Assembly (NCBI GenBank): GCA_002269645.1
Contig: NIVC01000758.1
Span: 310,001-374,000, forward strand
Direction of reading: 5' to 3'
Source: Macrostomum lignano
Taxonomy: Eukaryota
DNA: 64,000 nt
Shown here in pieces: positions 2,914-5,900 of the stretch; position 1 is the stretch's first letter, and each line of letters begins with the position of its first letter. A program made the position numbers and the translations under genes. The notes under the pieces were generated by a model that saw nothing but the letters and a program-made list of their open reading frames with translations, had not been told where the DNA came from and did no database searches.

Positions 2914-5900
2914 TAGTGATGTCGTACACAACCACAGCCACAGAGGAGTCCCTGATGTAGCTAGGGATGAGGCTGCGGAATCGCTCCTGGCCAGCCGTGT
3001 CCCACAGCTGCAGGCGAATCTGCAGGTGATGAGAGTTGGATTATCAGCTTATTTAATTCGATTCTGCAGGTGATGGAACTTTGAATAATCAATTTTTAGT
3101 TGAACTCAGGTTGCAGCAACCCAATTCGCCTAAACAGTCACAACTGAAAGCACTGCATGCACTCACTGTCCTGTCCTCCAAGTACATGGTCTTGGACAGA
3201 AAGTCGATACCGATTGTTGCCTGAGGAAATCAAGATCAAGTTAATATTCAATCACGAGCTAATTTTATATAAAACCAATTCTATTATAAACTCAGTGCAT
3301 GCACTGCATCAGGCACAGTGCTTGGCTCACCTGGTATGTGCTGTCAAAGCTGTCATACATAAATCGAGTTATTAATGATGTCTTCCCAACTACAAGGATA
3401 TTTTAAAATTTCTGTAAATAAAACTTCATAAGCATGTGTTCATATCATAATTAATATGCATCAAATTGAAATATGGCATACACAAGACTACACATTTGGT
3501 GCAAAATAAGTGCACGTAACTCTTGGGCTATGTGTACAGATAATAGAGTAACTAGATGGAGCACTTAGGCATATACAGTATACTTAGTAAAACAGCTTTC
3601 TATTTTCAGCGCAGTAGCAAAGAAAAATGCATAAGCAATTTTATAGATAAAGGTAACTGAAATGACTTTGATAAGTTTAGAAGCTCAAGCTTACAGACAT
3701 AACTAGCTTGCTAATTTGTTTAGCAATAATGTATATTAGCTAATCTATTGAAACTTAGGCTAGAATTCCAAGAAAGGCAATAAAAATTGGGGCAAGGCAA
3801 AGATAGAGTAGAAAGGTACAGTTGGAAAGTTTAAGCTAAGGGGGTGAAAGCCAAAAAAGAGCCTTGGCTTTAAAAATACTTTAAAATGCTTGTTATTGTA
3901 TTGAATTGAGGGCAGTTTATATATAAATATACTGCATGGCCCATCTACTTATTCTAGTATCTATGGCTATATGGCATAGGGTAGCTATTATATGAAAAAG
4001 CAATTCTCCAAAAATATCCCTCAGGCCTAGGCCTAACTTTTATCATATAAATGGGTCATAACCTATCCTTTGCTAATATTGTCTTTCTCTTACTAAAATT
4101 CATAACTAGCTAGGTAGGCCTAAACCAAACAAAAGCAATATAAAAAAGGTAAAAGATATAAAATTTCAATGTAGATAAAAAACTATTAACTTTTTAATTA
4201 TAAGTCTAATATAATACTCTAACTCTCATTCTCAAAATTATGCCAGTGTTGCAACAGTAAATGACCTTTTATAATTTGCATAATGGACACTTGTTGACAA
4301 AAAATTTGGTTAATTTTTATGCTTTTTTGGCAATACTATTTATAGCAGAAAATTAATACATACAAAGATTTGTTTAAAATACTTTGTTACAAGCTTAAAA
4401 ACCCAAAAAGCTTGAAATTTACACCTAAAAAAAATAAACTTGTTTTTACCTTTTTTACTTCACAATAACTTTTTTGCATGATTATATAAAGAGCAAGCTA
4501 GGTGTTCACATATACTATTTTCTTAGGAATGATGCATGCCAACTGTGCACACCTATTTTTGGCATGCAAGGCCAATGCATACCCAAATTTTTAGGCCTTT
4601 ACTAGGCCTACATGATCCAGAATGTGGCTTGGCCATAAACCTAATAAAGTTATAAGAAAATGGCTAAAAAATGCAAAAAGCGCAAAAACAAAGATAGTTA
4701 AAATGAAAAGTAAAGCTTTATATTTTACATAATAACTATTTTATATAGCTATAATATGTACAGGGCCCCTCCCGATTTCTTTCTAAAAATAGCTATCATT
4801 TATTACACTTTAAATTCACGCCAAAAACTACGACACATTTTTGTTTTAATATTCGTGTTTTGTATAATATTTTACGCGAACTAATTTTTGTTTAAAATCT
4901 ACTAGAATTTTACTATAAATACAAGCAAATTCGGCGGAGGGAGAACCAACCTTGCACATCGCGGTTCGCAATCATACCGATTAATAGCAGTTAATAAGAG
5001 TTCCGAGAAAATAAGAATTGAAGAAGTGTTTTCTGTGTTAATTCCTTTCGAGAAGTAAGAGTGAAGTAGACGGAAGTGTGGACCATATATACTACTAAGA
5101 AGGAAAGTGTTGAGTAGTAAGAAGTTGCGAAGTAGATCTGAAGTAATACGTGTAAGAATAACGGAGGCTGTGACCCTCTGATCTCGGTAATGCCCAAGGA
5201 CTTGCAAAGTACATGAAATACATATACCAGTAAGCCAAAATACCGCTCAGGCCATTATTAAGTAGAACGCTACCAGAATAATAAAATGCTACCAGAATAA
5301 TCAGAAGAGTACACCTTTCAGGGCTAACAGTTTTTCTAAGAATAATACTCAGAATAAATACTCAGACTAAATACCCAGACCTATTCTAAGAAACATTTCT
5401 CGGATTATTCTAAGATTGATAAACTCATAATTTATTAATAGGATAATCCTGGTGGCAGCTACCAACCTAAGAAGAACACTTAAAAGATTAGTAAATTAGC
5501 CCTGTGATAGCTTTTGGTGACAGTGTGAAATTATTATTAAGAAGAAAGAATCACCCCTGTAACAACTTTGGTGGCAGCTAGTAAGGCTAGCAAAAGGAAT
5601 AAATAAGAGCCCTACGACAGCTTTTGGTACCAGCAGTGGGATAACTAAAGAGGGAAGCAAACCCCCTGTTACAAATATTAAAACTTATTTTTTTAATTTC
5701 AAAATTATAAGTCTATAGCTAAGGATAAGCCTAACTCTCTATTGAAATATAACATTTTTTAAATTTTTAGTGAGTTTAGTTGAAGTTTAATGGTTTAAGT
5801 TTTTTTTCTTCTTTTTAATTTTCTATAAAAATGACAACTATGCCTAGTTAGTTGGTCATACCTGCGCAACCTCCAAAATTTGGTTGGCCATGCGACTTAG

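Follow-up and report, generated by a model that had tools for sequence, protein, structure and literature searches.

When a retroelement inserts, its two LTRs are usually taken to match exactly and to have a fixed end. A solo LTR of the flatworm Macrostomum lignano raises the question of how an LTR can come to end in a series of LTR-end and primer binding site (PBS)-like units separated by different spacers, and what such a series might do for the element that carries it. We addressed this question at the locus itself, in a 64,000-nucleotide stretch of contig NIVC01000758.1 (assembly GCA_002269645.1, positions 310,001 to 374,000, forward strand; hereafter the window), and in related copies across the genome.

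A solo LTR ending in PBS-like cassettes

A 917 bp solo LTR of a Ty3/gypsy family occupies window positions 4757..5673 on the forward strand, with TG...CA ends and flanking AATA target-site duplications (TSDs) at 4753..4756 and 5674..5677 (+). Its extent matches that given in a preliminary description of the locus, and its identity as an LTR is borne out by family LTRs, 83-96% identical, that flank gag-pol elements. A TATAAA motif at 4914..4919 (+) is a candidate promoter. The first internal LTR end with its linker (5500..5514, +) is followed by three cassettes, parsed on the same strand at 5515..5568 (spacer class 0, with a decayed head), 5569..5624 (spacer class 2) and 5625..5673 (spacer class 9); the LTR end of the third is the integrated end, as marked by the TSD. 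Each cassette, ~53 nt in length, consists of a tRNA-Leu PBS-like head, a spacer, an LTR end and a linker. LTR-end motifs finish at 5509, 5564, 5619 and 5673, linkers measure 4-5 nt, and heads begin at 5515, 5569 and 5625 with a spacing of 54-56 nt, so that the proposed succession of LTR end, short linker and PBS-like head holds for all three internal copies. The motif CCCTGT(N)ACA, previously assigned to all four LTR ends, is present at 5555 and 5664, while the other two ends are looser. The TGGT at 5450, formerly placed within the array's range, has no LTR end before it; it belongs to a conserved PBS-like 10-mer with a short tail (5450..5463, +) that is not a cassette and recurs in sister lineages without arrays.

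A junction detector returned the chain 5515/5569/5625 from the LTR, whereas among 1000 dinucleotide shuffles of the same sequence it found a single junction in 36 and a two-member chain in none. Over the whole window and both strands the detector reported 28 junctions, including these three, and one other two-member chain (17424/17467), which lies inside a GC-rich minisatellite. ARAGORN found no tRNA in 4757-5673, which holds antisense 18-mers only.

An 8-mer at 5267..5274 (+) is complementary to the 5' end of host tRNA-Leu(AAG/TAG). Such 5'-end-complementary motifs, and the PBS-like 10-mer with its short tail, which is conserved 170-350 nt upstream of the PBS in lineages with ~60% reverse transcriptase (RT) identity, are candidate extra tRNA contacts (window 5267-5274 and 5450-5463; L319:1231; L327:1246). 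A second solo LTR, at 1110-2167 with TSD TAGA, belongs to a related type (74% over 259 nt against L246/L313); the conserved PBS-like motif recurs in it at 1994, and its end is formed by a single cassette, whose head at 2103 matches 17/18.

The element family and its relatives

Related copies were collected by LTR searches of the same genome that scored the best 35-40 candidates each, so that copy counts are given as lower bounds; L-numbers denote individual element or LTR loci. The full-length copy L034 encodes, by Pfam, a gag with a zf-CCHC domain, a pol in the order PR-RT-RH-IN (protease 72-160, RT 412-573, RH 639-772, IN 976-1145) and an orphan third ORF; the order of gag (CCHC) and pol domains places the element in Ty3/gypsy. 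Also typical of that group are its TG...CA LTRs, its short TSD, the tRNA PBS that follows the 5' LTR and the purine tract that precedes the 3' LTR. Other copies, of ~4.6-5.5 kb, lack pol. For both pol (93%) and gag (70%) the top protein match bears the name Macrostomum lignano, the gag search having returned two matches, one of them so named.

The third ORF, located after pol (L034:2132-3208, minus strand; L031:4181-5188), encodes ~320-370 aa with a proline-rich front and a conserved C-terminal part, and is retained in non-autonomous copies that lost pol. Pfam assigned it to no family, proteins of 196-627 aa yielded no homologue at E<=0.001, and the atlas contained no match.

Six leader types (A-F), with RTs 87-98% identical, form a distinct clade in RT trees built from elements of this genome alone, and have arrays with largely separate spacer pools. 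Three sister lineages show 55-64% RT identity to them. One of these (L324-L326, 60%) has arrays of its own, and arrays must therefore have arisen twice or been lost twice; the L324-L326 arrays consist of PBS units with perfect terminal heads and vary in unit number. No arrays were seen in the 5 and 11 elements inspected from the other two sister lineages, which are abundant, one having >40 RT matches. Head-to-tail tandem elements with common LTRs were also observed (L032 and L033 on C1833; L291 and L292 on C1098; L356 on C241).

Cassette order and spacers vary between copies

Across the genome we identified at least 126 distinct arrays, which fall into at least 101 types of 1-7 cassettes, at least about 81 spacer classes and at least six related families; type and class counts depend on the thresholds chosen, and a few arrays (e.g. 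L016) are split by the parser. Both the number and the order of units vary between copies, a check that the preliminary description had proposed. Copies of an array are alike at their 5'-most units and diverge toward the 3' end, one spacer class can have up to 11 different successors, and cassettes move as units. Spacers ≥90% identical are common to different LTR-core clusters, some family members have zero or one cassette, and arrays at L046 and L124 differ from others by internal order swaps. Linkers carry next to no information on the upstream or the downstream unit (AMI 0.05 and 0.01).

Many different cassette ends have served for integration, since the ends of 29 solo LTRs fall in 10 spacer classes. 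This set comprises 42 LTR rows less 12 3' LTRs behind a purine tract and 1 parsing artefact, and 24 of the 29 have a 4-bp TSD when any TG within 6 nt of the estimated LTR start is accepted.

The spacers had been described as unrelated to each other. In the window this largely stands, as the four spacers are mostly unalignable (one of six pairs beats shuffles, 17/1000); family-wide it does not, for 45 of 2016 spacer-class pairs share 9-mers against 7.4 by chance, and spacers are mosaics of one another. Such word sharing could be expected of a plain decayed tandem duplication, that is, a minisatellite of the LTR end, as could the tandem duplicate cassette in L036 and the triplicated cassette in L120/L236/L261. 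The arrays, however, are not head-to-tail copies of one unit: the same spacer class recurs within only 9 of 80 multi-cassette arrays, some of these through over-merged classes, the window array is absent from the Tandem Repeats Finder output, and the unit-wise movement of cassettes with up to 11 successors, the polarity and the tRNA-identical heads described below would all be left without explanation. The reshuffling of cassette order between near-identical LTRs largely refutes this account, which we regard as very improbable.

CRISPR arrays likewise have a repeat-spacer layout with the newest units at one end, and the arrays studied here are analogous in their anatomy, their polarised growth and their about 81 spacer classes. 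A store of captured foreign sequence would nevertheless predict spacers of foreign origin. In 1.88 Mb of element-enriched DNA, a PBS-like head precedes 657 of the spacer matches and is absent in front of 12; among 11 of these 12 that were inspected, 5 resemble decayed cassettes and 6 look like AT-rich chance matches. Given also their mosaic relation to one another, spacers are best read as mosaic paralogues, recycled element sequence rather than foreign DNA. There was no sign of targeting, and Pfam found no cas-like genes in gag, pol, the third ORF or a short gag. We consider a CRISPR-like store the least credible of the readings weighed here.

Cassette heads and the true PBS

A pattern search found 32 host tRNA-Leu 3' ends of three types, and ARAGORN, run on 20, assigned AAG, TAG, CAG and TAA anticodons. 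Ungapped matches to tRNA-Leu(AAG/TAG) are 10/18 at 5450, 5515 and 5569 and 15/18 at 5625, the last head matching all three Leu types alike at 15/18. The suggestion that individual window heads correspond to different Leu isoacceptors was not upheld, as TAA- and CAG-type ends fit them no better than AAG/TAG.

In full-length copies the last cassette is followed by a true PBS, as had been anticipated, and then by a family-specific leader. Of 56 elements, 17 have a perfect PBS at this place and 39 a bulged one, in which an A-rich insert follows 11 matching nt. The bulged form precedes the internal leader in 45/45 pattern matches from five families and in all 47 distinct contexts examined, and in none of those 47 was it a cassette head. 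Perfect sites behind TT number 58 of AAG/TAG type, one of CAG type and none of TAA type genome-wide. Thirty-seven of the 58 have no leader after them, and nearly all of those inspected head cassettes; one perfect AAG/TAG-type site, L155, lies in an unrelated context. The last cassette of one array begins with the genome's only perfect Leu-CAG-type site, in which three positions depart from the AAG/TAG type and each of the three agrees with the CAG tRNA. A second isoacceptor is thus used occasionally. The element-encoded PBS is imperfect in three of four lineages, with a 10-11 nt match and then a bulge, or with other changes, and perfect revertants are scattered among the copies.

A given spacer can stand behind a perfect head in one array and behind a fixed, decayed head in another, and decayed heads usually travel with their spacer. 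Retroviral plus strands copy the primer tRNA and leave a heteroduplex PBS, according to passages of PMC4549124 and PMC7472051. Because of this precedent, and because perfect and CAG-type heads occur, we infer that newly formed heads are copied from tRNA. The 271 heads measured fall at edit distances of 0 (18), 1-2 (12), 3-5 (210) and 6-8 (31), a distribution whose zero class is enriched by the pattern searches and whose tail is clipped by the detector. By computed binding to the tRNA 3' 18-mer, 120 of 136 imperfect heads are weaker than the bulged PBS.

Two other accounts of the heads were tried and rejected. Strand-specific G>A editing fails on counts that are approximately equal per site (146 G>A on 10 G sites, 24 C>T on 2 C sites). 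Fold-back masking fails because shuffled sequences fold as well as the window cassettes do (z -0.12 to +1.26); among other cassettes one reached z -2.6, the mean over 144 was +0.22, and heads pair with their own spacer no better than with other spacers (p 0.46; 0.73 with one per class).

Array polarity and unequal LTR pairs

Perfect heads are terminal in 11 of 16 cases (L016 corrected) where ~5 are expected. The match of heads to tRNA is best at the 3' end of arrays and declines 5'-ward (rho -0.47, 0/500 within-array permutations), a trend that persists without perfect-headed arrays (rho -0.43, 0/500), although these permutation tests overstate independence, as arrays are kin by descent.

LTR pairs were compared in 54 elements. 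Not counted among these are 28 loci whose 3' LTR end could not be seen, 4 that repeat an insertion already included and 2 in which the 3' LTR is interrupted. Cassette number is equal in 50 pairs, including that of the tandem element L356, and unequal in 4. At L125 (one difference in 945 nt between LTRs, TSD AATA) the 5' LTR alone carries an extra perfect-headed terminal cassette; its siblings L037 and L127 have that cassette in both LTRs and L128 lacks it. At L332 (LTRs 99.9% identical, TSD ATCT) an extra perfect-headed terminal cassette is again confined to the 5' LTR, its spacer being a mosaic that begins like class 19 and otherwise derives from the last cassette of the element itself, and the siblings L333-L335, three insertions, are without it. 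The remaining pairs have extra cassettes in the 3' LTR only: three at L298 (TSD CAAG, LTRs 2% apart) and one at L134 (TSD CTTA), where the crossover lies inside the LTR-end motif and not at a head.

The inequalities at L298 and L134 could be later chromosomal deletions. For L125, priming from an internal head of a single RNA would account for the structure equally well and would add no cassette overall, which fits the presence of the cassette in both LTRs of L037 and L127. L332 alone would then stand as a clear cassette gain, so that such gains number one or two. With its polarity, unequal LTRs and heads, the array behaves as the record of replication events that it had been suggested to be.

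A proposed route of array growth

To explain these patterns we propose that arrays grow in the course of reverse transcription, by annealing of plus-strand strong-stop DNA to the complement of a cassette head rather than to that of the true PBS; we assign this reading a probability of roughly two in three. Plus-strand strong-stop DNA would end in the tRNA-copied PBS, and every head could in principle replace the PBS in priming or second-strand transfer. If the minus strand derived from a co-packaged RNA, its downstream cassettes would be joined to the 5' LTR alone. The head in front of them would be a heteroduplex and would resolve to the tRNA copy or to the donor's old head, and in the next round the longer array would be copied into both LTRs. 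Resolution in either direction could explain why one spacer is found with either a perfect or an old fixed head. Premature transfer, or slippage between repeated ends, would cause cassette loss, and switches inside spacers would create new mosaic spacers. Passages of PMC6894440 treat intermolecular transfer and template switching between co-packaged RNAs as established. In the relevant part of PMC7472051, Ty1 and Ty3 do not inherit the tRNA copy and strictly keep their own PBS, and in this respect the present gypsy clade would behave like retroviruses. What the arrays themselves show is that they are polarised, that some heads are identical to tRNA, that extra cassettes can be confined to either the 5' or the 3' LTR, that cassettes are shared between LTR types and that many cassette ends have been used for integration; all evidence on mechanism comes from integrated copies in the assembly rather than from cDNA intermediates.

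Shuffling could in principle proceed with no second-strand transfer, solely by minus-strand copy-choice switching and unequal chromosomal recombination at the ~25 nt repeated junction. The L134 crossover inside the LTR-end motif, the mosaic spacers, the joint travel of decayed heads and spacers, and the order swaps and tandem duplicate of L046, L124 and L036 are all of the kind that these processes would produce. On this account, however, heads should carry the commonest PBS, which is the bulged one, and none of the 47 contexts fits that expectation; nor would the Leu-CAG-identical head be produced, and minus-strand events would give equal LTRs, unlike those of L125 and L332. As a sole explanation we therefore hold it unlikely. 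Copy-choice switching does act beside the proposed head-directed transfer, since internal order swaps are not given by terminal addition alone, and so does plain repeat deletion, since the L134 crossover lies in the LTR-end motif rather than a head.

Possible functions of the arrays

With respect to function, we rank first, at about even odds, the view that arrays are a tolerated, self-renewing by-product with hitchhiking cassettes, favoured by the weak, bulged true PBS. Ranked second, and rather doubtful in our judgement, is an adaptive array in which heads would be spare priming or tRNA-recruiting sites that offset the weak PBS, with LTR ends kept so that internally primed cDNA integrates. 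Internal priming would be expected to yield the structure of L125, integration has used LTR ends of 10 spacer classes, and arrays have been retained in six families, whose spacer pools differ, as well as in a lineage with 60% RT identity. These points are countered by the computed binding of imperfect heads, mostly weaker than that of the PBS they would assist, by the two sister lineages that have imperfect PBSs yet no array, and by family members with zero or one cassette.

Third, heads might draw off 3' tRNA-Leu fragments, as decoys, and so keep them from blocking the true PBS. In mouse, according to the relevant passages of PMC7515703 and PMC7472051, 3'-tRNA fragments (tRFs) act on the PBS to block LTR elements, and imperfect PBSs are at an advantage; in this genome the bulged PBS persists despite one-way reversion, and heads with 1-2 changes are scarce relative to those with 3-5. 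A decoy should, however, outbind its target, whereas most heads are computed to bind worse, and extra sites on the same RNA could add to silencing. We consider decoys improbable, a little more so than shuffling by copy-choice and recombination alone. The persistence of the bulged PBS in the face of one-way reversion nevertheless suggests selection for mismatch, and, with the scarcity of near-perfect heads, is compatible with selection by tRNA fragments.

A broader and speculative reading, less probable than the by-product view, would join these elements. The arrays would form a self-renewing cassette system, situated where reverse transcription begins, whose ~53 nt mini-units spread between co-packaged elements by hijacked second-strand transfer, the LTR being a polarised tape of past co-packaging and primer use; selection from tRNA-fragment surveillance would keep the true PBS bulged and the heads attenuated, and the array would be the product of a host-element conflict over tRNA-Leu.

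Comparison with known systems

The arrays share with the canonical U5-PBS junction of Ty3/gypsy elements and retroviruses an LTR end in CA, a short linker, an 18-nt tRNA complement, a 4-bp TSD, gag (CCHC) and PR-RT-RH-IN, but here the LTR itself contains 1-7 repeats of the junction, set apart by different spacers, and the series varies between copies and between the LTRs of one element. The PBS of Ty1 and Ty3 is bipartite. Drosophila gypsy, with two tRNA-Lys sites, also has more than one tRNA-binding site on element RNA (PMC1635307, in part), but in gypsy and in Ty1/Ty3 these are fixed sites at two genome ends and not repeated LTR-end/PBS units. In HIV/SIV and mouse ETn/MusD/IAP, as covered in portions of PMC4549124 and PMC7472051, an imperfect element PBS likewise occurs beside perfect revertants copied from tRNA, and the sequence of a variant tRNA is occasionally left behind; those elements have a single PBS, whereas here tRNA copies would land inside the LTR as cassette heads. 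MAL-type HIV-1 has an extra mutated PBS-derived stretch beside the PBS, but, in the sections of PMC3185550 concerned, this is a single insertion of 23 nt that lies downstream of the PBS and involves no LTR end, array or exchange. The LTRs of the animal elements Helenus and Ajax also contain tRNA-related sequence; according to parts of PMC10886601, it is sense tRNA-like or 5S-derived, in contrast to the solely antisense 18-nt primer site found here.

No description of such arrays was found in the literature searched, a search whose reach excluded most subscription papers and Repbase. For PMC12801592, on LTR elements of M. lignano, a term search of the main text, figures and sequence files aside, returned neither PBS nor tRNA, and its five supplements gave unrelated tRNA matches only. 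The arrays are thus a real and apparently undescribed variant of LTR architecture, for which the mechanism proposed above is well supported but inferred. The LTR end is modular here, given the unequal cassette number in 4/54 elements, and arrays would tell which elements had been packaged together and which tRNA had served as primer, a genomic readout of normally invisible second-strand transfer errors. The clade combines retrovirus-like tRNA-copy inheritance with a bulged PBS kept across families, and makes the trade-off between priming and tRF silencing proposed for mouse endogenous retroviruses testable in an invertebrate. Consensus-based annotation and PBS finders will blur or misplace such LTR ends.

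Transcript contigs and other features of the window

Contigs of runs guessed to be RNA cover the array. Two start 125-140 nt inside one LTR, and three others span a whole LTR. In run X19, one contig runs beyond the last cassette of the window LTR, at 5674, into another cassette head; this cassette order is absent from the assembly copies examined, and the single contig is possibly chimeric. Elsewhere in the window lie a 1628-aa NACHT/NWD1-like ORF (53977-58863), a DUF1258/transposase_21 ORF (34897-37209), an HSP20 ORF (60260-61222), a tRNA-Lys(CTT) gene (21132-21204) and many GC-rich minisatellites.
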